Shown: piece after piece, positions 9,201-56,116 of the stretch | Numbering within the stretch: the stretch's first letter is position 1 | Layout of the letters: every line of letters begins with the position of its first letter | Assembly: GCA_000004695.1 (NCBI GenBank) | Contig: CM000154.2 | Span: forward strand, 3,264,001 to 3,328,000 | Reading direction: 5' to 3' | Source of the DNA: Dictyostelium discoideum | Taxonomy: Eukaryota | Length of the DNA stretch: 64,000 nucleotides | Made by a program: the position numbers and the translations under genes | The notes under the pieces: generated by a model | Told to the model about the DNA's origin: nothing | What the model saw: the letters and a program-made list of their open reading frames with translations, nothing else | The model's database searches: none

Positions 9201-10463
9201 ATTAAATAATAAAAAAAAAAAAAAATTATTTAATATTAATATATATAATTATATAATATTAATAATAATTATTTTAAACTTACTTCATCTCTTTTACCAG
9301 GGAATGGTTGTTTATATCTTCTAAAATGAGCAAACATTTCGGCTAATTCAGATGCCAATGAATCACCACATGCAAGCGAGGGGTTAACTTCAAAAGAGTT
9401 CATTGTATTGGCATCGTTTGTCGTATTATCACCATTTGACGATATATCTTCAGAGACAACTATAGATGGTTCATCATCGTCATTGCTATTGATTGTGTTA
9501 TTATTATAGGAAACGAATTCTCTCTACTTATATTGCAAGTATTATTATTACTACTGCTGTCACTATTATTATTATTGTTTTTATTATTATTATTATTATT
9601 GTTATTATTATTATTATTACTGCTGCTGTTACTACTACTACCACTACTATCGTTTTCGACAGATTTTTTAGGGGATTGTGAACAAGGTGTATTTGAAGGC
9701 TTTATTGAAGAAATTAATTGTTCTGTTGTTGAGGATGGTGGTGTGCTAGAGGTAATTACCATTTTAATGGATTTGTTTTTTTAATGAGGTGAAAGTAATT
9801 GAGCGTATTCCTAGTGTGTGTCTTTTTTTTTTTTTTTTTTTTTTTTTTTNNNNNNNNNNNNNNNNNNNNNNNNNNNNNNNNNNNNNNNNNNNNNNNNNNN
9901 NNNNNNNNNNNNNNNNNNNNNNNNNNNNNNNNNNNNNNNNNNNNNNNNNTTCAAATAATGTATTTACAATTTCTTGATATTTAAATAATTCCTTGTTTTT
10001 TTGTTTTGTTGTTGTTTTGTTTTAAATTAATTAAATAATAAAAAAAAAAAAAAATTATTTAATATTAATATATATAATTATATAATATTAATAATAATTA
10101 TTTTAAACTTACTTCATCTCTTTTACCAGGGAATGGTTGTTTATATCTTCTAAAATGAGCAAACATTTCGGCTAATTCAGATGCCAATGAATCACCACAT
10201 GCAAGCGAGGGGTTAACTTCAAAAGAGTTCATTGTATTGGCATCGTTTGTCGTATTATCACCATTTGACGATATATCTTCAGAGACAACTATAGATGGTT
10301 CATCATCGTCATTGCTATTGATTGTGTTATTATTATTATTTGGTATTATTGGTGATATTGGACTTGGAATATCTTCATTGTTATTACTATTATTATTATT
10401 ATTATTATTTACATTTGGTTCATATGATACTTTTTTAAATTGCTTTGGTATATATGTATTTTC

Positions 10464-10505
<42 letters not shown>

Positions 10506-10958
10506 GTTATTGTTATTAGTACAATTATAGCTTTCATTTATTAAAATTTCGGATTTAGAATTTAATATCTCTTCATTTCTGCTGTTGTTATTATTATTGT
10601 CACAACTATTATTATTATTACTATTATTATAGGTTTCATTATTCTCTTCTACAGCAACTGCTTCTTCTAATGTTAAATCCATCATGAAAGGAAACGAATT
10701 CTCTCTACTTATATTGCAAGTATTATTATTACTACTGCTGTCACTATTATTATTATTATTATTGTTTTTATTATTATTATTATTATTATTATTGTTATTA
10801 TTATTATTATTATTATTACTGCTGTTACTACTACTACCACTACTATCGTTTTCGACAGATTTTTTAGGGGATTGTGAACAAGGTGTATTTGAAGGCTTTA
10901 TTGAAGAAATTAATTGTTCTGTTGTTGAGGATGGTGGTGTGCTAGAGGTAATTACCAT
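6257..10958 (-). CDS. Myotubularin-related phosphoinositide 3-phosphatase (CX5R active site HCISGWDRT), at least 4 exons: complement(join(6257..7929,8023..8238,8357..9162,[gap],10113..10958))
   Basis: Recalled MTM1 shows three collinear blocks: the catalytic loop VHCSDGWDRT vs LVHCISGWDRTPLFISLL here, the upstream block CETYP...SKFRSKGRFPVLSYYH vs CATYPPDL...SRFARVRTRFPFPVIFYHH here, and a downstream KDW...F.H block. All splice junctions (GTAAGT donors at 10112, 8356 and 8022; AG acceptors at 9163, 8239 and 7930) keep phase. There are very long N/Q-rich insertions. The 5' end passes through the 100-N gap and a duplicated segment (see findings). Confidence 0.75.
9121..9840 (-). pseudogene. Variant second copy of the myotubularin exon-2 5' end + intron 1 + exon 1, carrying a ~350-bp internal deletion that breaks the reading frame (ORF 9460..9762 ends ...FPIIITQSIAMTMMNHL*)
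   Basis: Positions 9121-9500 are essentially identical to 9950-10330 and 14881-15260. The copy then jumps to the equivalent of 10690 ('gattgtgttattattatag|gaaacgaattc'). It abuts the N-gap, so it may be a collapsed-repeat assembly artefact or a real tandem partial duplicate. Confidence 0.5.
9850..9949. other. Assembly gap (100 N)
   Basis: A run of exactly 100 'n' sits between poly-T at 9830-9849 and duplicated sequence that resumes at 9950. Confidence 0.99.
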
Positions 10959-11553
10959 TTTAATGGATTTGTTTTTTAATGAGGTGAAAGTAATTGAGCG
11001 TATTCCTAGTGTGTGTCTTTTTTTTTTTTTTTTTTTTTTTTTGGTTTTTTTTTTTTTTTAATTTATTTATTATTTTTTTTTTTTATTTTTTCTATTTTTT
11101 TTTATATTTTTTATTTTATTTTTTTTTTTTTTTATTTTGGTTTTTTTGAGTTTAACTTAATAAAAAAAAAAATAAAAAAAAATAAAAAAAAATAAAAAAT
11201 AAAAATTAAAAAAAAAAAAAAAAAAAAAAAAATAAAATAAAATAAAATAAAAAAAAAAATAAAGATAAACCTGAAAAAGAGAAATGATTATTTAAATATA
11301 CCTCTTTTTTTTTTAAGATTTAATTTTATATGTATTCAATATTTTTTATTTTAAAATTTAAATATCCATTTACAAACCAATTTTCAAAATTATTATTCAA
11401 GTTATCCAATAAAAATAGGCAATTTTCAATGACTAAAAAGGAAATACCATAAAGTTAAGATAGAATTAAATACATAATTAAGGAATTGATTTTTTTATTT
11501 TTTTTTTTTTTATTGGAATTGTTTAATTTAACCTAATGTTATTTTTCTGAATT

Positions 11554-13147
11554 CTATTTAATTATTTTTACATTTTTTGAAACATAAGGTTCAATTTGAT
11601 GTTTAAAACTTGTGAAAACTTTTACTTCCTTTACAGTATTAGGAATTGAACCAATTATTAATTCTTGTTTAATATCGCCTAAACGCAACGATTCAACACC
11701 ATCTGGTAATATACCTGGTGTTAATTTTTGATTGAATCCATCTTTTAAAGTAACACGAGTTACAGTATTAGGAATTGAACCAATTATTAATTCTTGTTTA
11801 ATATCGCCTAAATACAAGGATTTAACACCATCTGGTAATATACCTGGTGTTAATTTTTGATTGAATCCATCTTTTAAAGAGACAAGAGTTACAGTATTAG
11901 GAATTGAACCAATCATTAATTCTTGTTTAATATCGCCTAAATACAACAATTTAATACTATCTGGTAATATACCTGGTGTTAATTTTTGATTGAATCCATC
12001 CAATAAAGAGACATGAGTTACAGTATTAGGAATTGAACCAATCATTAATTCTTGTTTAATATCACCTAAATACAAGGATTTAACGCCATCTGGTAATATA
12101 CCAGGTGTTAATTTTTGATTGAATCTATCCAAGAGCATTACAGTAGATGGTAATTGATTTTTTAATTTTGATAAAATATTACAATTGTCTTTGAATGCTA
12201 TACCTTCATTCTCCTTAAATTTAAATGAATCATCCTCTATATAAACATAAAACTTTGAACTATCCCCTATATTTGGTAATTAGAATGATGTAAACATAAT
12301 TTATAAAAAAAACTGTATAAAGCTTACATTTAAAAAATTTATTTTTATTTTCATCGATTTCAATTATAAATCTACAATTATCTAAGGTATAAATTGATTT
12401 TAAATTATTTTTAATATCATCAATTATTTGATTATGGAAATGAATGATTTGATTATCGTATTCATTTAATTTATTTGAATTATTGATATTATTATTATTA
12501 TTTAATACTATTAATGATTGTTGATATTGTTTAATAATTTTAATTGTATCTCTATCAATAATAAAATCTTCTCCATTATCATAAATTTGTTGATCATTAA
12601 ATTTTATAATTTCATTTAATTTTTCAATAGTTGTAGTTCTATCATTTTCATTTTCATTATTATTATTAATTATAGTTGAAAGTATTTGATTATCATTATT
12701 GATTGAAGAAGTTATAATTGTATTTATTAATGTATTATTTTCAAAGGTTGTTTCTAATTGTTTTTTAATATCTAATTCTATGATTGAAATGATATCATGA
12801 ATTTTTTTAATTTCTTTTTTTAATGAATTATTATTAATATCAAATTGTGATTGAATTTCATTGTATTTATCATTTGATTCTTGTAATATTGTTTCATTGA
12901 TTTCTATTCTTTCAATTACTTTTTGGTATATATCATTTTTAAAATTATTCATTAATGAAAGAATATTTGAAGTTGATTCTAATGGATCAGTTTTATGACC
13001 ATGATGTTCACCTTTACTTGATGTACATTGAATACAACATGGTATTAATTTACAATCTAAACAAAAGAATACTATATCTTTATTTGGGTGAAGTGTACAC
13101 TTTTTATTATTATCAATATTATTTATTTTATTATGATTTGAAATCAT
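11554..13147 (-). CDS. B-box zinc finger + coiled coil + FNIP-repeat protein (cluster copy 1), about 510 aa: complement(join(11554..12266,12328..13147))
   Basis: The B-box motif is [36 protein letters not shown]. Splice AAAT|GTAAGC...CCAAATATAG|GG runs in phase 1 and creates Trp, joining the B-box exon to ...WDSSKFYVYIEDD...MLLDRFNQKLTPGILPDG. The second exon has about 7 FNIP repeats (FNQKLTPGILPxxVKxLxLGDIKQELIIGSIPNTVT). The start is probably the M of MISNHNK (13147); the longer ORF-track start reads through promoter poly-T. Confidence 0.8.
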
Positions 13148-13494
13148 TGTGTTTGGGATTGGTGTGGATGTAAAAAAAAAAAAAAAAAATTTGGAACCAG
13201 AAATTTTTATATGAGACACCAAAAATAAAAAAAAATAAAAAAAATAAAAATAAAATCGCTTAAAAAATTAAGAAAAACAAAATCTTTTTTTTTTTTTTTT
13301 TTTAAAAAATAAATAAATAATTAAATATTTATATTGTTATTGATAAAAATTTAAAAAAAGGAAAAATATTTTGAATTCAATCGTTAATCATTTTTTTTTT
13401 ATAAAAAAAAAAGATATAATTTAATTATATATACAATGTTTTTTAAATCTCTATTTTTGGAACATTTTAATAGTAAATTAAATTTAAATATGTT

Positions 13495-13575
13495 TGCTGA
13501 CATTAATATGGCTGCTGAAATTAATATGCATGTAAATTAATATGGATGCTAAAATTAATATGGGACACACTATTG
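13495..13575. repeat. Array of 4 tandem ~17-bp units '(c)tg(c/a)(t/a)aaattaatatgg' ending in '...atgggac'; a solo terminus related to the 18706-19322 palindromic element
   Basis: The units read ctgacattaatatgg / ctgctgaaattaatatgc / atgtaaattaatatgg / atgctaaaattaatatgggac. The same motif is the sub-terminal repeat of the TIR element at 19146-19322. The array lies about 350 bp upstream of gene copy 1. Confidence 0.4.
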
Positions 13576-13906: not shown

Positions 13907-14440
13907 TTAACAGTAGTTTCTTACACTCTTTACAGTATTAGGAATTGAACCAATCATTAATTCTTGTTTAATATCACCTAAATACAACCATTCAACACTA
14001 TCTGGTAATATACCTGGTGTTATTTTTTGATTGAATTCATTCAATAAAGAGACACTCGTTACAATATTAGGGATTGATCCAATCTCCAATTCTTGTTTAA
14101 TATCGCCTAAACTCAACCATTTAACACCAACTGGTAAAATGCCTGGTTTTAATCTTTGATTGAATCCATCCAATAAAGAGACATGAGCTACAGTATTAGG
14201 AATTGAGCCAATTATTAATTCTTGTTTAATATCACCTAAATACAAGGATTTAACACCAACTGGTAAAATGCCTGGTGTTAATTTTTGATTGAATCCATCC
14301 AATAGCATTACATTTGATGGTAATTGATTTTTTAATTTTGATGATGAAATATTACAATTGTCTTTGAATGCTATACCTTCATTCTCCTTAATTTTAAATG
14401 AATTACCCTCTATATAAATATAAAACTTTAAATTATCCCC
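13907..14440 (-). pseudogene. 5'-truncated FNIP-repeat exon fragment (about 4 repeats) with a diverged 3' end (...NTVKSVRNYC*)
   Basis: It is homologous to the exon-2 / intron / B-box-exon boundary of the intact copies up to 14440. There the sequence switches abruptly to myotubularin-derived sequence. Its 3' flank is shared with the degenerate fragment at 23845-23925. Confidence 0.6.
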
Positions 14441-14594: not shown

Positions 14595-15392
14595 TTGATT
14601 ATTATTATTATTTTGATTATTATTATTATTATTACTAAACATTATAGATTGTGATAAAATATAACTGGAAATGGGAATCTTGTTCTTACACGTGCAAATC
14701 TAGATTGATCCAATAATTTTTCTAAATTACGAGAGAGTTCTGGATGAACGTGTTTATTCTTTTCTTTACATACTTTACATCCTGTCTCTAACTCGTGTTC
14801 AATAAAAATTAAATCTGGTGGGTATGTTGCGCATAATTCACCTTCTTTATTATTGATTAATGATATTTTATAATCTTTTTCAAATAATGTATTTACAATT
14901 TCTTGATATTTAAATAATTCCTTGTTTTTTTGTTTTGTTGTTGTTTTGTTTTAAATTAATTAAATAATAAAAAAAAAAAAAAATTATTTAATATTAATAT
15001 ATATAATTATATAATATTAATAATAATTATTTTAAACTTACTTCATCTCTTTTACCAGGGAATGGTTGTTTATATCTTCTAAAATGAGCAAACATTTCGG
15101 CTAATTCAGATGCCAATGAATCACCACATGCAAGCGAGGGGTTAACTTCAAAAGAGTTCATTGTATTGGCATCGTTTGTCGTATTATCACCATTTGACGA
15201 TATATCTTCAGAGACAACTATAGATGGTTCATCATCGTCATTGCTATTGATTGTGTTATTATTATTATTTGGTATTATTGGTGATATTGGACTTGGAATA
15301 TCTTCATTGTTATTACTATTATTATTATTATTATTATTTACATTTGGTTCATATGATACTTTTTTAAATTGCTTTGGTATATATGTATTTTC

Positions 15393-15434
<42 letters not shown>

Positions 15435-16290
15435 GTTATTGTTATTAGTACAATTATAGCTTTCATTTATTAAAATTTCGGATTTAGAATTTAATATCTC
15501 TTCATTTCTGCTGTTGTTATTATTATTGTCACAACTATTATTATTATTACTATTATTATAGGTTTCATTATTCTCTTCTACAGCAACTGCTTCTTCTAAT
15601 GTTAAATCCATCATGAAAGGAAACGAATTCTCTCTACTTATATTGCAAGTATTATTATTACTACTGCTGTCACTATTATTATTATTATTATTGTTTTTAT
15701 TATTATTATTATTATTATTATTGTTATTATTATTATTATTATTATTACTGCTGTTACTACTACTACCACTACTATCGTTTTCGACAGATTTTTTAGGGGA
15801 TTGTGAACAAGGTGTATTTGAAGGCTTTATTGAAGAAATTAATTGTTCTGTTGTTGAGGATGGTGGTGTGCTAGAGGTAATTACCATTTTAATGGATTTG
15901 TTTTTTAATGAGGTGAAAGTAATTGAGCGTATTCCTAGTGTGTGTCTTTTTTTTTTTTTTTTTTTTTTTTTTGGTTTTTTTTTTTTTTTAATTTATTTAT
16001 TATTTTTTTATTTTATTTTTTCTATTTTTTTTTTATATTTTTTATTTAAATTTTTTTTTTTTTTTTTTTTTTTTATTTTGGTTTTTTTTGAGTTAAACTT
16101 AATAAAAAAAAAAAAAATAAAAAAAAAATAAAAAATAAAAATTAAAAAAAAAAAAAAAAAAAAAATAAAATAAAATAAAAAAAAAATAAAGATTAACCTA
16201 AAAAAAGAAATGATTATTTAAATATCCCTCTTTTTTTTTTTAAGATTTAATTTTATATGTATTCAATATTTTTTATTTTAAAATTTAAAT
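14441..16290 (-). pseudogene. Segmental duplicate of the myotubularin 5' region (part of exon 2 with a ~160-bp deletion, intron 1, complete exon 1 15042..15887, promoter), fused to FNIP sequence
   Basis: ORF 15027..15887 is 100% identical to 10098..10958. Positions 14455-14640 match 8561-8760 apart from poly-AAT length. The internal deletion is at 14660 ('gtgataaa|atataactgg'). The copy contains none of the catalytic exons. Confidence 0.65.
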
Positions 16291-16630
16291 ATGTTAAAAC
16301 ACTCTTTTTTTTTTTTTTTTTTTTTTTTTTTCAAGATTCAATTAAACACTGCCCTCTAAAGGAATAAAAGTAACAGTAATGTAAGTATTAAAAAAATTTT
16401 CAATATTATGCAAATTTCCATTATACTATCCTGATTTTTTTGAAATTTCAAAAAAAAAAAATATCTTTTTACAAATTATTATTCAAGTTATCTAATAAAA
16501 ATAGGCAATTTTCAATGACTAAAAAGGAAATACCATAAAGTTAAGATAGAATTTCCCAATTAAATACATAATTAAGGAATTGATTTTTTTTTTTTTTTTT
16601 TTTATTGGAATTGTTTAATTTAACCTAATG

Positions 16631-18518
16631 TTATTTTTCTGAATTCTTTTTAATTATTTTTACATTTTTTGAAACATAAGGTTCAATTTGATGTTTAAAA
16701 CTTGTGGAAACATTTACTTCCTTTACAGTATTAGGAATTGAACCAATTATTAATTCTTGTTTAATATCGCCTAAATTCAACGATTCAAAACCATCTGGTA
16801 ATATACCTGGTGTTAATTTTTGATTGAATCCATCTTCTAAAGTGACACGAGTTACAGTATTAGGAATTGAACCAATTATTAATTCTTGTTTAATATCACC
16901 TAAATCCAACGATTCAACACTATCTGGTAGAATACCTGGTGTTAATTTTTGATTGAATCCATCTTCTAAAGAGACATTCTTTACAGTATTAGGAATTGAA
17001 CCAATCATTAATTCTTGTTTAATATCACCTAAATCCAACGATTCAACACCTTCTGGTAGAATATCTGGTGTTAATATTTGATTGAATCCATCTTCTAAAG
17101 AGACAAGAGTTACAGTATTAGGAATTGAACCAATCATTAATTCTTGTTTAATATCACCTAAATACAACCATTTAACACTATCTGGTAATATACCTGGTGT
17201 TAATTTTTGATTGAATCCATCTTTTAAAGAGACAAGAGTTACAGTATTAGGAATTGATCCAATAATTAATTCTTGTTTAATATCACCAAAAAACAACCAT
17301 TCTACGCCATTTGGTAAAATACCTGGTGTCAATTTTTGATTGAATCCATCCAATAAAGAGACACGAGTTACAGTATTAGGAATTGAACCAATTATTAATT
17401 CTTGTTTAATATCACCTAAATACAAGGATTTAACGCCATCTGGTAATATACCAGGTGTTAATTTTTGATTGAATCCATCCAATAGCATTACATTTGATGG
17501 TAATTGATTTTTTAATTTTGATAAAATATTACAATTGTTTTTGAATGCTGTACCTTCATTCTCCTTAAATTTAAATGAATCACCCTCTATATAAACATAA
17601 AACTTTAAATTATCCCCTATATTTGGTTATTAGAATGATGTAAACATAATTTATAAAAAAAACTGTATAAAGCTTACATTCAAAAAATTCATTATTATTT
17701 TCATCGATTTCAATTTTAAATCTACAATTATCTAAGGTATAAATTGATTTTAAATTATTTTTAATATCATCAATTATTTGATTATGGAAATGAATGATTT
17801 GATTATCATATTCATTTAATTTATTTGAATTATCGATATTATTATTATTATTTAATACTATTAATGATTGTTGATATTGTTTAATAATTTTAATTGTATC
17901 TCTATCAATAATAAAATCTTCTCCATTATCATAAATTTGTTGATCATTAAATTTTATAATTTCATTTAATTTTTCAATGGTTGTAATTCTATCATTTTCA
18001 TTTTCATTTTCATTTTCATTTTTATTATTTTTATTATTAATTATAGTTGAAAGTATTTGATTATCATTATTGATTGAAGAAGTTATAATTGTATTTATTA
18101 ATGTATTATTTTCAAAGGTTTTTTCTAATTGTCTTTTAATATCTAATTCTATGATTGAAATGATGTCATGAATTTTTTTAATTTCTTTTCTTAATGAATT
18201 ATTATTATTATCAAATTGTGATTGAATTTCATTGTATTTATCATTTGATTCTTGTAATATTGTTTCATTGATTTCTATTCTTTCAATTACTTTTTGATAT
18301 ATATCATTTTTAAAATTATTCATAAATGAAAGAATATTTGAAGTTGATTCTAATGGATCAGTTTTATGACCATGATGTTCACCTTTACTTGATGTACATT
18401 GAATACAACATGGTATTAATTTACAATCTAAACAAAAGAATACTATATCTTTATTTGGGTGAAGTGTACATTTTATATTATTATCAATATTATTTATTGT
18501 ATTATGATTTGATACCAT
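16631..18518 (-). CDS. B-box + FNIP-repeat protein (cluster copy 3), about 608 aa, about 9 FNIP repeats: complement(join(16631..17616,17678..18518))
   Basis: The architecture and the phase-1 intron (GAAT|GTAAGC...ATATAG|GG) match copy 1. The ORF is intact, but the usual 5' flank is replaced from 18531 by foreign sequence. Confidence 0.8.
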
Positions 18519-18705
18519 TGTGTTTGGGATTGGTGTGGATGTATTGAGAACCGGTTCTCAATCAATCGCACAACCTATTTATCAAACTAATCAAGGTATA
18601 AAAATGCAACTATAAATGTTACTATGTAAATACAACCATTCAACACTATCTGGTAATATATGTGGTGTTAGTTTTTGATTGAATCCATTTTTTAAATAGA
18701 CATGT

Positions 18706-19322
18706 GTCCCATGCCAAAATAAAACGAAACTTCATCTGTTAGTAACAAAAGAGTAAGCAGAAGAGTCAATAATTAAAATAAAAAATATTATTTTAATTTT
18801 TTTTTTTTTTTTTTTTTTTTATTTTTTTTTATTTTTTTTTATTTTTAATTTTTTATTTATAATTTTTTTTTTTTGTGAGCCGGCTAGACATAAATGAATA
18901 ATAAAAAAATATATACCAACTAAAAAAAAAAGAAATGAAAATAAATTATAAAATTAATAATAAAAATAAAAAGATAAAAATAAATAAAAGATATAAATAA
19001 AATAATATGAAAATTTTTTTTTTTTTTTTTATATTATTATAATTATTTTTTTTTAGTTGATATATATTTTTTTAATAATAATTTTAGTGCTAAAATTTTG
19101 TTTATATTTGAGATGATTATTAATTAAATGACTTTGACTTTTTTTTTTTTTCTATGCCAAAATTACCATATTAATTTCAGCAGCCATATTAATTTCGGCA
19201 GCTATGTACATGCTGAAATTAATATGGCTGCTGAAATTAATACGGTAATTTTGGCAGACGTAAGTCCCATGCCAAAATTAATATGGCTGCTGAAATTAAT
19301 ATGGTAATTTTGGCATGGGACA
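18706..19322. mobile_element. About 620-bp non-autonomous palindromic (MITE-like) element bounded by 15-bp TIRs GTCCCATGCCAAAAT / ATTTTGGCATGGGAC, with nested sub-terminal hairpins
   Basis: The left TIR is at 18706-18720, inserted into an FNIP-homologous fragment (18630-18705). The right TIR is at 19308-19322. 19143-19262 and 19265-19322 are near-perfect hairpins built from 'gctgaaattaatatgg' units. No ORF lies inside. Confidence 0.45.
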
Positions 19323-19949
19323 AATAAATAAGGAATAAATTATTTAAAAAAAATAAAAATTCTTATATTTTAATATTTTTTATTTAAATATTTATTGTAC
19401 ACCCATTATTTTTTATCATTTTATTATAGTTTTTAATAATATACAATATCATATATTAAACTATAATTTAATGTTTTAAAAAATGAGAAATTACAATAGT
19501 ATTATTTCCTATTAATTGTTGTATATTATTAAATTATAGTTTTATGTTTTAAAAAATGAGAAATTACAATAGTATATTGTGGTAAATCAATAAATTTTTT
19601 ATAATTTAATGACAAATTAATATTCAATTTTAATTAAATAATTTTAGATTTTATCAATTTTTAATTTATTAAAATATATTTTTATTATGGCCAGATTCTT
19701 TTTTATTATTTTATGATAATGTGTGATTAATTATTAATTAGAAATTGATATTAGTTTGTTAAAAATTTTATTACATTATAATATCGTTTCTTAAAATATG
19801 AGTTTTTGCGGTAGTTTAATTTCTCACAAAATAGTAAAATTTCTTAGGTTTTTTTTCTCTGGTGAATACATAATTAAGGAATTGATTTTTTTTTTTTTTT
19901 TTTTTTTATTGGAATTGTTTAATTTAACCTAATGTTATTTTTCTGAATT

Positions 19950-22900
19950 CTATTTAATTATTTTTACATTTTTTGAAACATAAGGTTCAATTTGATGTTT
20001 AAAACTTGTGGAAACATTTACTTCCTTTACAGTATTAGGAATTGAACCAATTATTAATTCTTGTTTAATATCGCCTAAATTCAACGATTCAACACCATCT
20101 GGTAATATACCTGGTGTTAATTTTTGATTGAATCCATCTTCTAAAGTGACACTCTTTACAGTATTAGGAATTGAACCAATTATTAATTCTTGTTTAATAT
20201 CACCTAAATCCAACGATTCAACACTATCTGGTAGAATACCTGGTGTTAATTTTTGATTAAATCCATCTTCTAAAGAGACATGAGTTACAGTATTAGGAAT
20301 TGAACCAATCATTAATTCTTGTTTAATATCACCTAAATACAACGATTCAACACCTTCTGGTAGAATACCTGGTGTTAATTTTTGATTGAACCTATCTTCT
20401 AACGAGACATTCGTTACAGTATTAGGAATTGAACCAATTATTAATTCTTGTTTAATATCGCCTAAATACAACAATCCAACACTTTCTGGTAATATACGTG
20501 GTGTTAATTTTTGATTGAATCCATCTTTTAAAGAGACACTCGTTACAGTATTAGGAATTGAACCAATTATTAATTCTTGTTTAATATCACCTAAATACAA
20601 CAATCCAACACTTTCTGGTAAAATACCTGGTGTTAATATTTGATTGAATCCATCTTCTAAAGAGACAAGAGTTACAGTATTAGGAATTGAACCAATCATT
20701 AATTCTTGTTTAATATCACCTAAATACAACAATTTAACACTATCTGGTAATATACCTGGTGTTAATTTTTGATTGAATCCATCTTTTAAAGAGACAAGAG
20801 TTACAGTATTAGGAATTGATCCAATAATTAATTCTTGTTTAATATCACCTAAATCCAACAATTTAATACTATCTGGTAATATACCTGGTGTTAATTTTTG
20901 ATTGAATCCATCTTTTAAAGTGACACGAGTTACAGTATTAGGAATTGAACCAATCATTATTTCTTGTTTAATATCACCTAAATACAACCATTCAACACTA
21001 TCTGGTAAAATACCTGGTGTTAATTTTTGATTGAATCTATCCAATAAAGAGATATGAGTTACAGTATTAGGAATTGAACCAATCATTAATTCTTGTTTAA
21101 TATCACCTAAATGCAACAATTTAACACTATCTGGTAATATACATGGTGTTAATTTTTGATTGAATCCATCTTTTAAAGAGACACGAGTTACAGTATTAGG
21201 AATTGAACCAATTATTAATTCTTGTTTAATATCGCCTAAATCCAACAATTTAATACTATCTGGTAATATACCTGGTGTTAATTTTTGATTGAATTCATCT
21301 TTTAAAGATACACGAGTTACAGTATTAGGAATTGAACCAATCATTATTTCTTGATTAATATCACCTAAATACAACCATTCAACACTATCTGGTAATATAC
21401 CTGGTGTTAATTTTTGATTGAATCCATCTTTTAAAGAGACAAGAGTTACAGTATTAGGAATTGAACCAATTATTAATTCTTGTTTAATATCACCTAAATA
21501 CAAGGATTTAACACCATCTGGTAATATACCTGGTGTTAATTTTTGATTGAATCCATCTTTTAAAGAGACATGGATTACAGTATTAGGAATTGAACCAATC
21601 ATTAATTCTTGTTTAATATCACATAAATCCAACAATTTAATACTATCTGGTAATATACCTGGGGTTAATTTTTGATTGAATCTATCCAATAAAGAGATAT
21701 GAGTTACAGTATTAGGAATTGAACCAATTATTAATTCTTGTTTAATATCGCCTAAATCCAACAATTTAATACTATCTGGTAATATACCTGGTGTTAATTT
21801 TTGATTGAATTCATCTTTTAAAGATACATGAGTTACAGTATCAGGAATTGAACCAATTATTAATTCTTGTTTAATATCACCTAAATACAAGGATTTAACA
21901 CAATATGGCAATATACCTGGTGTTAATTTTTGATTGAATCTATCCAATAAAGAGATATGGATTACAGTATTAGGAATTGAACCAATCATTAGTTCTTGTT
22001 TAATATCACCTAAATACAAGGATTTAATACTATCTGGTAATATGCATGGTGTTAATATTTGATTGAATCCATCCAATAAAGAGACATGGATTACAGTATT
22101 AGGAATTGAACCAATTATTAATTCTTGTTTAATATCACCTAAATACAAGGATTCAACGCCATCTGGTAATATACCAGGTGTTAATTTTTGATTGAATCCA
22201 TCCAATAGCATTACAGTTGATGGTAATTGATTTTTTAATTTTGATAAAATATTACAATTGTTTTTGAATGCTGTACCTTCATTCTCCTTAAATTTAAATG
22301 AATTACCCTCTATATAAACATAAAACTTTAAATTATCCCCTATATTTGGTAATTAGAATGATGTAAACATAATTTATAAAAAAAACTGTATAAAACTTAC
22401 ATTTAAAAAATTTATTATTATTTTCATCGATTTCAATTATAAATCTACAATTATTTAAGAAATAAATTGATTTTAAATTATTTTTAATATCATCAATTAT
22501 TTGATTATGGAAATGAATGATTTGATTATCGTTTTCATTTAATTTATTTGAATTATTGATATTATTATTATTATTTAATACTATTAATGATTGTTGATAT
22601 TGTTTAATAATTTTAATTGTATCTCTATCAATAATAAAATCTTCTCCATTATCATAAATTTGTTGATCATTAAATTTTATAATTTCATTTAATTTTTCAA
22701 TAGTTGTAGTTCTATCATTTTCATTTTCATTATTATTATTAATTATAGTTGAAAGTATTTGATTATCATTATTGATTGAAGAAGTTATAATTGTATTTAT
22801 TAATGTATTATTTTCAAAGGTTGTTTCTAATTGTTTTTTAATATCTAATTCTATGATTGAAATGATATCATGAATTTTTTTAATTTCTTTTTTTAATGAA

Positions 22901-23220: not shown

Positions 23221-23626
23221 TTTGTTTGGGGTTAATGTTGATTTAAAAAAAAAAAAAATTTGTTTTCGGAAATTTTTATATGAGACTTAATCCACCACCA
23301 AAAATCAAAAAAAAAAAATAAAAATAAAATCACTTAAAAAATTAAGAAAAAAAAAAACAAAATCATTTTTTTTTTTTATAATATTATTATTAAATAATTA
23401 AATAATTAAATATTTTTATTATTATTGATAATTTTTTGAAAAAAAAGAAAAATATTTTGAGTTAAATAATTAATCATTTTTTTTTATAAAAAAAAAAAGA
23501 TATTGCAACAAGATCTCAAAAATATCTTGTTAATACTAACATTTATTTAATTTCATGAAATGTTCTAAATTTAATTTTCAAAAAAAAAAAAAAAAATTTT
23601 TAATTATAATTTCAATTTCACAATAG

Positions 23627-23830
23627 ATATTAGATACCAGATATTAAAATGTCACACAACTTCAACAACTACAATAACATATTCAATTAGTTAATCAACA
23701 AACACAACAACGTCAACAACAACTAAATAATCACTCAACACCACCATCGTCACCTAATGTTACAACACCAATAACTTCAGCAACAATAACCAACACAATA
23801 GATATCTGGTATCTAATATCTATTGTATGA
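23627..23830. mobile_element. About 200-bp A/C-rich segment flanked by 22-bp inverted repeats (caatagatattagataccagatat ... atagatatctggtatctaatatctattg)
   Basis: The inverted repeats are read directly. The interior has retroelement-like A/C strand bias and only short ORFs. It lies in the copy-4 promoter region. Confidence 0.3.
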
Positions 23831-23924
23831 AATTATTGTAAAATATTTGATGTTATTTCTTCATTTTATCTTGTTTTGCCATATGATTAGTGGGTTGGTT
23901 GTACCTGTTAATGGTAGTTTCTTG

Positions 23925-26203: not shown

Positions 26204-26241
<38 letters not shown>

Positions 26242-27248
26242 TTACTTGTATATGTAAATAAATTTAAAAAAAAAAAAAAAAAAAATTTAATAATTACTTG
26301 AAACATTAAAATATCAATATAAGTTTCATATTTTGAATAACCTTTTCTTGGATCAATGATAATTTCAAATAAATGAATTTTTGCATTTGGTTTCATTGAT
26401 TTTGAAATTGTTTTTAAAATTTTAACACAATCTTGAGTTGGCCAATCATGAAGGATAAATTTCATGATATAACAATCTGATTCTGGTACACTTTCAAAGA
26501 AATTACCTGGAATATGAGTTAATCTTGGATGAGAATATCTTAAAGTCTGATCAGAGGAATTGATAACAACATCTAAATCGAAATTGATACCATGTTTAAT
26601 TGTTGGATAAATTTCCAATAGGTTACCAATTAACAATCCATGATTGCCACCAATATCAACCACTGTATCATATTGAGAGAAATCTATACCTTTTGATTGG
26701 GTGATATTGGATATGGCGGCTTCAGTGTAAACCTTCATAGTTTGATTGAACAAATCCTTATATTGTGGATGTAAATCGAATAATTCCCAAAAATGGTTGA
26801 CACCAACTGATTTTGTGGCATTACTATGACCATTTGCAAAAGTCTCTGGTAATGATTCAAACATTTTATAATGTAAATCATGGGTGTATCTTTCACCCAT
26901 TGGTCTAAGTTTACCCTTACTTGAAAACATTGTACTAATAGAAGTCTTTTCAAATGTACCAATATTTGATTTATCTTCGCTAAATAATTCATGAGCAACA
27001 AAATATCTCAATAATCTAAAACATGAATTTTCATCCATTCCAATCGTATCTGAAACTTGTTTAATTGATTTTGGTCCATCCTCTAAAATATCACAAATAT
27101 TCAATTTCATTACAATATTAAACATACGAGAATGAATATGTCCTGAAACACATGTCATAATTAAATTCATTGCTTTATCCCAATCTGTTGTAATTTCATT
27201 ATTCATATTTGTTATTGGTAATTGTGGGGTACTTAATCCTGAATCCAT
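26073..27248 (-). CDS. Class I SAM-dependent O-methyltransferase (plant COMT-like), about 357 aa: complement(join(26073..26195,26298..27248))
   Basis: The SAM-binding motif is VVDIGGNHGLLIGNLLEIYP and the OMT dimerisation region is FNIVMKLNICDIL. ...DILMFQ|GTAATT (26297) splices to CCAAATAG| at 26195, giving the typical OMT C-terminus MVNAKERTLDEWKELFELADFKLERVVDDIKTGCMVVSKK*. The terminal exon is not in the ORF track. Confidence 0.8.
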
Positions 27249-49763: not shown

Positions 49764-52073
49764 ATGATTAATATTGAAGATATTTCAAAATCTTCAAACC
49801 AAAGTGAAGAAAAACAATTAAAAAGTACAAGTTCAAAACCAAAATACTCATTCGCAGCAAAAAGTTTATTCAAAGGTTCAAATAATATTACACCATATTA
49901 TTTATCAACCAGTAATACATTCCAATGTGTAGCATCTGAGTCAATTCAAACATGGCTTCTTTCAGATGATGGTCATATCTTTACATCCAGTGGTAATTTT
50001 GTTTTAGATGTTTCATCAGGTGGTTATTTTGTTGAATTAGTACAACTTAATTCAAATTCAAAAACTCAAATTTGGACAATTGATACAACAAATAATAAAA
50101 TTCAAAACCAAGGTAATGGTAAATACCTTGATATCGACAATTTGAATATTTGTGTTGCACCTCTAAATGGAAACGCAACTCAACAATGGACAACTTTTAG
50201 AAGAGCACCAATTCCAACTGGTAATTGGGGTTACTTTCAAAGCAAACAAATGGATTCAAATAATAATTATTGGGGTTTAAGTGTATTAAATAATAGTAAA
50301 TCATATAATACTAGTGTAGTAATGAATAAAGTTCAAGCAAAATCAAAAGGTCAAATTTGGCAAATGACAAACGATGGTCACATTTTATCACGTTTGGATG
50401 GTAGTTTGGTATTAGATATTGGTCCATCAATTAATGGTAGTACAACAAACTATTATTTAGATACCAATGTTTACAAAGCAAATGATCTAAAGCAACAATG
50501 GGGTATCAACGAAAATAATCAAATATTCAATCAATATTATCCAAATTTATGTATTGGATTCGTTGGTGAACTTGGAGTTGATTCAACTGTTAATTGTGTA
50601 TTAGCTCAACCAAGTAGTGCTAGTGATATTAATTTCCAATGGATTACAAATCCAACCTATTCATTAAATGAAATTGTTAGTGAAGTACCAGAACCATTTC
50701 CAGCTTACACAAGTGGTGATTTATTAGCATCATATCAATACCTTAGTAATATTGCAACTTCTAATTTTACTGATGATATTAGATCACTTTATACAGGAAT
50801 CAATGTTAGTTTACAATCCTTTTTAAGTATTGTCACCAATGCAACTTGTCCATCATCAATTCATTCGACTGAAGATTTTTCAAATGTTCAAAATCAAATC
50901 AAAACTGAACTCATCTATGCAATCGATGTCCGTTTAGTATTTGAAAACTATTCTGGTTTTTATAGTAAATTATTTAGTCAAGGTAGTTCAAATTTAACAA
51001 ATTTAGCAAATTTAATTAATGTTGATATGTCATCTAATCAAATGGTTAATGCAAATTATACTGATGCAATTACTAGTGTTTTTTATTCACTTATTTCAGA
51101 GATTCCAGTAGGTGGTTCAATAATTGCAAACATTGGTCAATCAGCAGTAGAATGGGGTGAATTAATTTCTCAAAGTAATTATCAAGGTGCATCAACCTAT
51201 CAAGTTGAATTAAGTCAACTCTACTCTCATTTAAATACAAACTATGAAAATGAAATGGCAAATGCTCAAAGTATGAAGGATACCATTTTACAAGATTGGG
51301 GTATGATGAGTAAAACTTATGCATTATGTTTCTTACCAACCAATGATCCATCCTCACTCAATATCAATGGATTAAACTTTGAAAAAATTTCAGATGTTGC
51401 ATCTGTAGCTTACGAAATTGCAATGATTCAAATGTTATTACCAACTACTTATCAAATTTACTTTACACCAGCTGGTTATTGGGTACCTTATTCAGATGGT
51501 GATTTCGCTTATAGTGATAACTCTGGAACCTATATTATGGCCACTATCGAGTATAGTAATTCTTATCCTCCAAAGGAATTGACCGATAAGTTATGGAATA
51601 ATGGGGTTTCAAAACAAGAATTTTTCTGGTCAGCTTATGGTTGGAATTTAGCTACCTCACTCACCTATTACAATATGGCAAACAAGTTTGGTAATATCTA
51701 TAAATTAGCTTTTCCAACAATTAAAAATTTTACAGGAGTACCAATGCAATTTGTAATGACCAATGATGGTGATAATCTTTGTAATTTCCCAGTCAAAACT
51801 CATTTTGCAAAATTTTTTTCTATATATTACAGTTGTGGAGATCTTGGTCATCATTATTTCGACATTGCCGTAAATGATATTAACGATAACAAGGTTGCAA
51901 ATTTCACAGTTGATATTAATTTAGAAGCTATTGAAGGAAGTTATGTTTCAATCAAAACTGGTTCATTAGTTGTTCAGCCAGGTTATGCTGTTGGTAATCC
52001 AATTTGTAATCAAGGTAGTTATTCTCTAATGTTTTCTGCTTCAATTTTAATTCCAATTTATAAATCAGAATAA
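49764..52073 (+). CDS. 769-aa protein with N-terminal ricin-B (QxW)3 lectin repeats; resembles the Dictyostelium calcium-upregulated 'Cup' family
   Basis: Ricin-B signatures are TQIWTID...GKYLDID, QQWTTF and [25 protein letters not shown]...QQWGIN. The single ORF has no signal peptide. The family assignment is from memory of domain architecture and size only. Confidence 0.65.
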
Positions 52074-53806: not shown

Positions 53807-56116
53807 ATGATAAATATTAAAGATATTTCAAAATCTTCAAATCAAAGTGAAGAAAAATCATTAAAAGGTACAAGTTCAAAAACAAAATACCCATTCGCAG
53901 CAAAAAGTTTATTCAAAGGTTCAAATAATATTACACCATATTATTTATCAACCAGTAATACATTCCAATGTGTAGCATCTGAGTCAATTCAAACATGGCT
54001 TCTTTCAGATGATGGTCATATCTTTACATCCAGTGGTAATTTTGTTTTAGATGTTTCATCAGGTGGTTATTTTGTTGAATTAGTACAACTTAATTCAAAT
54101 TCAAAAACTCAAATTTGGACAATTGATACAACAAATAATAAAATTCAAAACCAAGGTAATGGTAAATACCTTGATATCGACAATTTGAAAATTTGTGTTG
54201 CACCTTTAAATGGAAACGCAACTCAAAAATGGACAACTTTTAGAAGAGCACCAATTCCAACTGGTAATTGGGGTTACTTTCAAAGCAAACAATTGGATTC
54301 CAATAATAATTATTGGGGTTTAAGTGTATTAAATAATAGTAAATCATATAATACTAGTGTAGTAATGAATAAAGTTCAAGCAAAATCAATAGGTCAAATT
54401 TGGCAAATGACAAACGATGGTCACATTTTATCACGTTTGGATGGTAATTTAGTATTAGATATTGGTCCATCAATTAATGGTAGTAAAACAAACTATTATT
54501 TAGATACCAATGTTTACAAAGCAAATGATCTAAAGCAACAATGGGGTATCAACGAAAATAATCAAATATTCAATCAATATTATCCAAATTTATGTATTGG
54601 ATTCGTTGGTGAACTTGGAGTTGATTCAACTGTTAATTGTGTATTAGCTCAACCAAGTAGTGCTAGTGATATTAATTTCCAATGGATTACAAATCCAACC
54701 TATTCATTAAATGAAATTGTTAGTGAAGTACCAGAACCATTTCCAGCTTACACAAGTGGTGATTTATTAGCATCATATCAATACATTAGTAATATTGCAA
54801 CAAATGGTCATACTGATGACATTAGATCACTTTATACAAGTATTAATGTTAGTTTAGAAATTTTCTATGTTAATGTCACCAATGCAACTTGTCCATCATC
54901 AATTCATTCAACTGAAGATTTTTCAAATGTTCAAAATCAAATCAAAAATGAACTCACCTACGCAATCACTGTCCGTTTAGTATTTGAAAACTATTCTGGT
55001 TTTTATAGTAAATTATTTAGTCAAGGTAGTACAAATTTAACAAACTTGGCAAATTTAATTAATGTTGATATGTCATCTGACCAAGTTGTTAATGGAGATT
55101 ACACCGATGCAATTACCAGTGTTTTTTATGCAATTATTTCAGAGATACCAATTGGTGGTTCAATAATTGCAAACATTGGTGAGTCAGCAGTAGAATTTGG
55201 TGAATTATATGCTGAAAGTAATGATTCAGGCCCATCAACCTATCAAGTTACATTAAGTAAACTCTATGATCATTTAAATGAAAATTATGAAAATGAAATG
55301 ACAAATGCTCAAAGTATGAAAAATACCATTTTACAAGATTGGGGTATGATGAGTAAAACCTTTGCATTATGTTTCTTACCAACCAAAAATCCATCCTCAC
55401 TCAATATCAATGGATTAGACTTTCAAAAAATTTCTACCATAGCTTCTTTAGCTTACCAAACTGCAATGATTCAAATGCTATTACCAACTAATTATCAAAT
55501 TTACTTTACACCAGCTGGTTACTATGCACCAGTTTCAAGTGATGATTACTCTTATACTGATAGTACTGGAACCTATATTATGGCCGAAATCGATAACTGT
55601 AACTCTTATCCTCCAAAAGCTTTAACCGATAAGTTATGGAATAATGGAGTTTCAAAACAAGAAGTTTTCACATCTTCCTATGGTTGGAATTTAGCTACCT
55701 CTGTGACCTATTACAATATGGTCGATAAATATAGTGGAATGTTTAAATTATCTTTCCCAACTGTAAAGAATTTTACATCAGTACCAATGCAATTCGTAAT
55801 GACCAATGGAAGTGATAGAGTTGGTACTTTCAATGTTAAAACTCATTTTGCTGGATTAGCCTCAACATATTACTATTCAGGTGCTCTTGGTCATCATTAT
55901 TACGATATTGCTGTAACTGATATTGACGGTAACAAGGTTGCAAATTTCACAGTTGACAATAATTTGGAAGCTCTTGAAGGTAGTTATGTTTCAATCAAAA
56001 CTGGTTCATTAGTTGTTCAACCAGGTTATGTTGTTGGTAATCCAACTTGTAATCAAGGTAGTTTTTCTCAAGGATTTGCTGCTTCAATTTTAATTCCAAT
56101 TTATAAATCAAATTAA
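53807..56116 (+). CDS. Tandem paralog (769 aa, about 85% identical) of the ricin-B lectin / Cup-like protein
   Basis: It is collinear with 49764..52073 over its full length. Differences cluster at residues 330-350 and 440-480 and in the C-terminal 200 aa. Confidence 0.65.

Follow-up and report, generated by a model that had tools for sequence, protein, structure and literature searches.

Genomic setting of the repeats

The window analysed here, 64,000 nucleotides of Dictyostelium discoideum chromosome 5 with an A+T content of 77%, contains a tandemly duplicated B-box/FNIP gene cluster whose genes all lie on the minus strand. The gene adjacent to the repeats that concern us has a spliced model (18518-17678 joined to 17616-16631, 608 aa) with DDB_G0289849 as its best match, and the O-methyltransferase encoded at 26235-27248 groups with D. 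discoideum AX4 omt9. With 95.5% identity, 12000-13172 and 17350-18543 form a pair of tandem duplicates, whose homology stops at 13172 and 18543, respectively. Just past these points, in intergenic junction zones of the cluster, lie the two separate sites in the window that carry thug-type sequence, 13494-13566 and 18705-19322.

On a larger scale, the window holds between 9700 and 19900 a segment of about 5 kb that has been duplicated in tandem, its copies being 95-97% identical. Each copy contains an Asn-rich gene (10098-10958 and 15027-15887) and a B-box gene with FNIP repeats (11554-13222 and 16631-18518). Truncated FNIP remnants are found between the full genes, at 13907-14308 (a 133-aa ORF with three repeats) and 18627-18704 (a fragment of 78 bp), and look like pseudogene debris from the duplications. 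Further away, two adjacent ORFs of equal length (769 aa; 49764-52073, with a ricin-B lectin domain, and 53807-56116) likely represent another recent tandem duplicate.

Terminal repeats and 18-nt units

A 15-mer, GTCCCATGCCAAAAT, occurs exactly three times in the window: at 18706-18720 (+), 19264-19278 (+) and 19307-19321 (-). Its leftmost copy belongs to an isolated thug-type terminus on the plus strand, TGTCCCATGCCAAAAT (18705-18720), which matches 19264-19278 and, in inverted orientation, 19307-19322. The outer inverted match is 16 nt long and its two halves are 586 nt apart. Perfect 15-bp terminal inverted repeats had been proposed by the initial annotation. They are indeed perfect and the left copy lies precisely at 18706-18720, but the right one had been placed at 19308-19322, one base too high.

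The ends read (T)GTCCCAT GCCAAAATTA, that is, they have TG...CA termini, and come before arrays of an 18-nt unit, CTGCTGAAATTAATATGG; units in opposite orientations make the DNA palindromic. With up to 3 mismatches allowed, the unit has nine matches in the 64-kb window (0.11 expected), of which three are in tandem at 13494-13563, two are antisense at 19166-19201 and four are sense at 19210-19245 and 19269-19304. At 19166-19202, an 18-nt period is picked up by Tandem Repeats Finder as well. The form of the terminus ATGCCAAAATTAATATGG is a variant of the same unit with 3 mismatches. Terminal inverted repeats as expected of MITEs are present (16 nt for the outer pair, a perfect 17 nt for the pair bounding 19264-19321), and the sequence is non-coding and, at 58 to 618 bp depending on which ends are taken, below the limit of about 800 bp. 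The earlier description of the locus as MITE-like or foldback-like, non-coding and equipped with terminal inverted repeats and sub-terminal 18-nt repeats thus holds, all of the repeats being present far beyond chance.

Foldback structures

When the right block is folded, two strong hairpins result, at 19155-19256 and 19264-19321. Hairpin 1 has arms of 46 nt (19155-19200 and 19211-19256) that are 96% complementary, and is made up of two antisense and two sense 18-nt units between eroded termini, tATGCCAAAATTA ... TAATTTTGGCAgac. Its folding energy is -68.5 kcal/mol on the plus strand (z -13.5) and -69.4 kcal/mol on the minus strand (z -14.6). Hairpin 2 is a minimal foldback of 58 nt, in which 1 1/3 units are enclosed by perfect 17-nt inverted ends, GTCCCATGCCAAAATTA / TAATTTTGGCATGGGAC (dG -26.6 kcal/mol, z -6.0). 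An alternative pairing appears in a 206-nt fold, where the arm 19155-19200 of hairpin 1 pairs with 19270-19315. That the right end is itself a 58-bp hairpin had been noticed before and is borne out by folding. A second hairpin had been drawn at 19143-19262 and called nested; a strong hairpin does exist there, yet it extends from 19155 to 19256 and the two structures are adjacent. Across the hairpins, the single ORF of at least 40 aa is a 59-aa read-through of the repeats, for which searches returned neither an exact record nor a homologue.

The site near 13.5 kb is of a different kind. Four 18-nt thug units form an orphan array on the plus strand (13494-13566, 73 bp) ending in '...ATATGGGAC', and for 13487-13563 Tandem Repeats Finder records a period of 18 nt in 4.4 copies. 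The array does not fold (z +0.56), and neither an inverted partner nor a hairpin was found for it. It lies within a 3' flank that is common to FNIP paralogues: the sequence 'aaatttaaatatgtt-aaa-acactc' near 16.28 kb is to be compared with 'aaatttaaatatgtt[array]acacta'. As an empty site, Paralogue C (23486-23860) was of no help, because it does not align across the array. What had been taken for a related solo terminus ending at 13575 is consequently confirmed as to its four tandem units; however, the closing '...atatgggac' ends at 13566 and the array remains unfolded.

Correspondence with thug-S small RNAs

The small DNA transposon thug-S of D. discoideum was described by Glöckner et al. 2001 (Genome Res 11:585), and Malicki et al. 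2017, with reference to that work, count Thug as one of three DNA-transposon families of this organism, with a share of about 0.1% of the genome. MicroRNAs derived from thug-S were reported by Avesson et al. 2012 (RNA 18:1771) and appear as miRNA_can_D3 in Meier et al. 2016 (PMC4894637); the literature on the element also includes Liao et al. 2018 (PMC6161686). A literature search for the 15-mer and unit sequences returned PMC4894637 alone. Table 2 of that paper gives a thug-S 21-mer, AUUAAUUUCGGCAGCCAUAUU, and a thug-S 23-mer, UAUGGCUGCUGAAAUUAAUGUGG, and its Northern probe DM227 is CCACATTAATTTCAGCAGCCATA.

Both RNAs have close counterparts in hairpin 1. A 21-mer-like sequence, ATTAATTTCAGCAGCCATATT, is located at 19170-19190 (+) and differs from AUUAAUUUCGGCAGCCAUAUU by 1 mismatch; further sites with 1 mismatch to the 21-mer are 19221-19241 (-), 19280-19300 (-) and 13505-13525 (-), the first two of which carry the same variant ATTAATTTCAGCAGCCATATT. 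A 23-mer-like sequence, TATGGCTGCTGAAATTAATATGG, lies at 19166-19188 (-), likewise 1 mismatch away from UAUGGCUGCUGAAAUUAAUGUGG, and the 23-mer is met again at 19282-19304 (+) with 1 mismatch and at 19223-19245 (+) and 13507-13529 (+) with 2. The chance expectation is 0.00 matches in the window for the 21-mer and 23-mer alike. The locus departs from the published RNAs by an A where they have G, both in the 21-mer and in the 23-mer. Probe DM227 is identical to 19166-19188 in 22 of 23 bases.

On both strands of hairpin 1, the 21-mer-like sequence occupies the 5' arm and the 23-mer-like sequence the 3' arm. Judging from the pairing in the fold of hairpin 1, the 3' end of the 21-mer would overhang by 2 nt, a Dicer-like register and the one expected for a Dicer product. 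The start of the 21-mer precedes that of the 23-mer by 53 nt. In the six exact-match thug-S loci of Table S4 in Meier et al. (PMC4894637), the two starts are 63 nt apart, with the 21-mer first; the order of the two is the same, and the spacing at 18705-19322 is 10 nt shorter, the loop or stem being reduced. The present copy is not among these six loci of Table S4, which are chr5:425150-425235 and 4796459-4796544, chr3:4529841-4529926, and chr2:1630981-1631066, 2783116-2783200 and 3248586-3248671; DDB_G0271154_TE is another annotated thug-S entry. According to the same authors, the small-RNA sequences, which they assign to the thug-S transposon, occur in multiple copies on chromosomes 2, 3 and 5, their accumulation requires RbdB, and the microRNA is sited 'in the intron of' thug-S (PMC4894637). 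The small-RNA class to which they belong is published as requiring DrnB, for exact-match copies of thug-S.

The repeats had first been presented as a previously unrecognised family that was not recognisable as thug, with the proviso that a match to a DNA transposon already on record would refute this. Such a match is now at hand. Since both thug-S RNAs match at 1 mismatch each, and the family has been catalogued since 2001, the claim of a new family fails; the 18-nt unit and hairpin carry both microRNA sequences and most of the DM227 target. The accompanying suggestion that the hairpin ends might act as small-RNA precursors fared better. The ends could indeed be such precursors, and the idea is already published for thug-S. 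We regard hairpin 1 as a putative precursor of the thug-S microRNA type.

Occurrence in other assemblies and lineages

Over 18400-20000, the window agrees at 100% identity with another D. discoideum assembly, GCA_054883475.1 (CM142511.1, about 3.35-3.37 Mb). Elsewhere the two are 99.6-99.9% identical, and this assembly is without approximately 352 bp at 15266-15617, within the Asn-codon-rich ORF 15027-15887, which reflects either repeat-length polymorphism or assembly collapse. Another difference is listed at about 9507-9950.

Other Dictyostelium loci (L008-L013), amounting to about 128 kb, served for comparison. Orthologous omt9-FNIP loci, 87-95% identical, come from D. cf. discoideum (L010) and from two divergent strains labelled D. 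discoideum (L012, L013). Neither in these three loci nor in the three paralogous ones (L008, L009, L011) did we find the unit or terminus motifs. This absence fits a lineage-specific mobile insertion. The orthologous loci are arranged too differently for exact empty-site boundaries to be obtained from them. Those of the two divergent strains do harbor other transposons in the omt9-FNIP region, at 16277-21236 of L012 (GCA_054859385.1) and 14305-15036 of L013 (GCA_054859355.1); these insertions include an LTR retrotransposon (RVT_1, RNaseH, Integrase_H2C2, rve) and DDE_Tnp_4 (Harbinger-type) genes. The omt9-FNIP neighbourhood attracts insertions in several lineages. Beyond these loci, GGCTGCTGAAATTAATRTGG was sought in JGI metagenomes and 185,579 prokaryote genomes, with six single matches in sequences of 26-53% G+C. 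We consider them chance matches, because they are accompanied neither by the terminus motif nor by repeated units.

Composite structure of the locus

The left terminus differs from all other ends. Sub-terminal units are present at every end but this one, and the bases that follow it, 'aaaacgaaactt', are unrelated to the 18-nt unit. On its outer side it adjoins a truncated FNIP-repeat coding fragment on the minus strand (18627-18704, 78 bp), which lies outside the element and is 86-89% identical to FNIP repeats such as 13979-14054. Paralogous FNIP repeats read 'gacatg|agttacagtattagg', while the left junction reads 'gacatg|tgtcccatgcc', and the continuation 'agttacagtattagg' was sought to the right of 19322 and not found. 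No target-site duplication is seen at 18705/19322, where the left flank is ...gacatg and the right flank aataaat; none is seen at 19264/19321 or 13494/13566 either. A 5-bp duplication AAATA, with the element starting at 18699, was considered and rejected, as 18699-18704 'gacatg' belongs to the FNIP coding sequence and is shared by several paralogous FNIP repeats within the window, where it is conserved (e.g. 11980, 20247, 21537).

Between the solo terminus and the hairpin block lies an AT-rich spacer of T-runs followed by A-runs (18721-19142), in which no ORF of at least 60 aa was found. It produces low-complexity alignments only, at 68-69% identity to the paralogous intergenic stretches 15988-16313 and 11068-11384, in which T-runs and then A-runs are matched. 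The spacer may be either thug-S interior or ordinary intergenic DNA. The spacer holds a 39-nt inverted repeat (18892-18930 and 19046-19084, 90% complementary; AAATGAATAATAAAAAAATATATACCAACTAAAAAAAAA and its complement), which could be thug-S interior or a chance product of AT-rich sequence. Just beyond the right edge of the thug block, TATTAAACTATAATTTAATGTTTTAAAAAATGAGAAATTACAATAGTAT occurs as a direct repeat of 49 nt at 19454-19502, 19527-19575 and 19769-19817; two of these copies, 73 nt from each other, share 94% identity, and the third is weaker (69%).

How these parts belong together can be viewed in several ways. In the simplest one, which underlay the initial annotation, 18705 and 19322 are the bounds of one intact 617-bp MITE with 15/16-nt terminal repeats. 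The perfect 16-nt inverted match 586 nt apart agrees with this, as do a size within the MITE range and the lack of an ORF. Against it, no target-site duplication of any length is present; the left end lacks sub-terminal units, and the flanks are not contiguous host sequence, given that the FNIP fragment on the left has no 'agttacagtattagg' counterpart on the right. In addition, the right 180 nt consist of two self-contained foldback modules and the interior can be aligned only as low-complexity T-run/A-run DNA. We therefore think it very unlikely that the locus is one intact element. Our own reading of the sequence is that a solo terminus and two foldback modules were left behind by insertion followed by deletion or rearrangement, and we hold it to be highly probable that they are decayed, rearranged pieces of thug-S. 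The latter rests on the two published RNAs, the DM227 probe and the hairpin geometry.

The resemblance to thug-S might be of a looser sort, with the locus representing a distinct uncatalogued MITE family, or a sister family (thug-T), that shares the 18-nt unit but has its own GTCCCATGCCAAAAT termini and copies. The spacing of 53 nt instead of 63 nt could be taken in this sense, and so could the facts that every copy in the window is 1-2 nt off from the published RNAs and that Meier et al. place their hairpin in an 'intron' of thug-S, not at its end (PMC4894637). Against it, two independent thug-S RNAs of 21 and 23 nt match with 1 mismatch each on opposite arms of one hairpin, which is the level of identity shown by diverged copies of one family, and the terminus ATGCCAAAATTAATATGG differs from the 18-nt unit by just 3 mismatches, as a variant of it. 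A separate family is accordingly quite improbable. One can also imagine that no transposon was involved and that the locus is a microRNA or hairpin gene of the host, or a palindromic duplication that arose in place. The hairpins are certainly strong, and Rfam returns microRNA-like matches to mir-5727 (33.9 bits) and mir-2253 (22.1 bits). These are far under the gathering scores of 100 and 47 bits, though, and we rejected both as chance hairpin resemblances. An origin in place also conflicts with the multi-copy, transposon-attributed occurrence of the sequences on chromosomes 2, 3 and 5 (PMC4894637), with the second, non-folding array 5 kb away, and with the orthologous loci of related lineages, which are without the sequence; it is extremely improbable.

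Proposed mechanism

Taking the locus as thug-S, it shares with the published element the organism, the position of both small RNAs on opposite hairpin arms, and the non-coding, palindromic and multi-copy nature of the sequence. It differs from the published loci in being truncated and rearranged, in the shorter spacing and in the lack of a target-site duplication. Since Meier et al. site the microRNA in an 'intron' (PMC4894637), the canonical thug-S could be a larger element than the sequence at 18705-19322. The GTCCCAT... ends might then possibly be the bounds of an internal foldback module and not the true transposon end.

Judging by the literature on the family, a transposase acting in trans would probably bind the end units CTGCTGAAATTAATATGG. 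Candidate sources of such a transposase are Tdd-4 and Tdd-5, for which Wells 1999 is reportedly the source paper. These elements belong to the Ginger2/Tdd superfamily and are characterized by an integrase-like DDE transposase, TGTNR termini, a 5-bp target-site duplication and inverted ends of 260-297 bp (Bao et al. 2010, PMC2836005). Like the locus, they are D. discoideum cut-and-paste sequences with TG...CA termini, the form used by integrase-type transposases. By their published description they differ from the locus, which is without an integrase ORF and has inverted ends of just 15-17 nt. The terminus TGTCC (...GGACA) agrees with TGTNR at four of five positions, the fifth base being C and not a purine, and the flanks acatg and aataa form no 5-bp duplication. 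Whatever its source of transposase, the present copy has probably undergone deletion or rearrangement since it inserted, and is most likely an immobile fossil, considering the missing target-site duplication and the non-contiguous flanks.

Even an immobile copy could yield small RNAs. Upon transcription, for which read-through from a gene nearby is the most plausible route, the palindrome would fold into a long hairpin, which the nuclear DrnB/RbdB microprocessor would dice into microRNA-like RNAs of 21-23 nt, as published for thug-S copies elsewhere. The genes on either side are both encoded on the minus strand, and a transcript running on past 19950, where one of them ends, would contain the minus strand of the hairpins. 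On that strand, both small-RNA-like sequences are 1 base off the published ones. Hairpin 1 would in this respect be structurally competent for putative variant thug-S small RNAs.

Comparable arrangements exist in other organisms. Drosophila FB elements have inverted ends composed of tandem sub-repeats, the human element MADE1 gave rise to miR-548, and there are plant microRNAs derived from MITEs. What the locus has in common with them are ends of short inverted tandem units and a transcript that would form a long near-perfect hairpin open to Dicer-type cutting. The sequences and lineages are unrelated, so that the likeness is one of mechanism only.

Significance

Taken together, the locus is an ordinary broken copy of a family known since 2001, whose role as a source of microRNAs has been known since 2012. 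These microRNAs are young and developmentally regulated. The locus matters little beyond annotation. If it is absent from the thug-S annotation of dictyBase, a degenerate copy would be gained, along with a possible variant small-RNA locus; a single base in each case sets ATTAATTTCAGCAGCCATATT and TATGGCTGCTGAAATTAATATGG apart from their published counterparts.

The position of the thug pieces at the breakpoints of the FNIP duplication provides a small hint of a thug-S role in local rearrangement. The pieces sit where FNIP homology breaks off (13172 and 18543 onward), and a terminus is fused to a truncated FNIP repeat without a duplication. We mention a more far-reaching scenario, in which aberrant or one-ended thug-S transposition, or thug-thug recombination, made the rearrangements and hairpin 1 is an unannotated variant thug-S microRNA locus. 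We consider it rather unlikely. If it were true, thug-S would be a driver of expansion and decay in the FNIP gene family.
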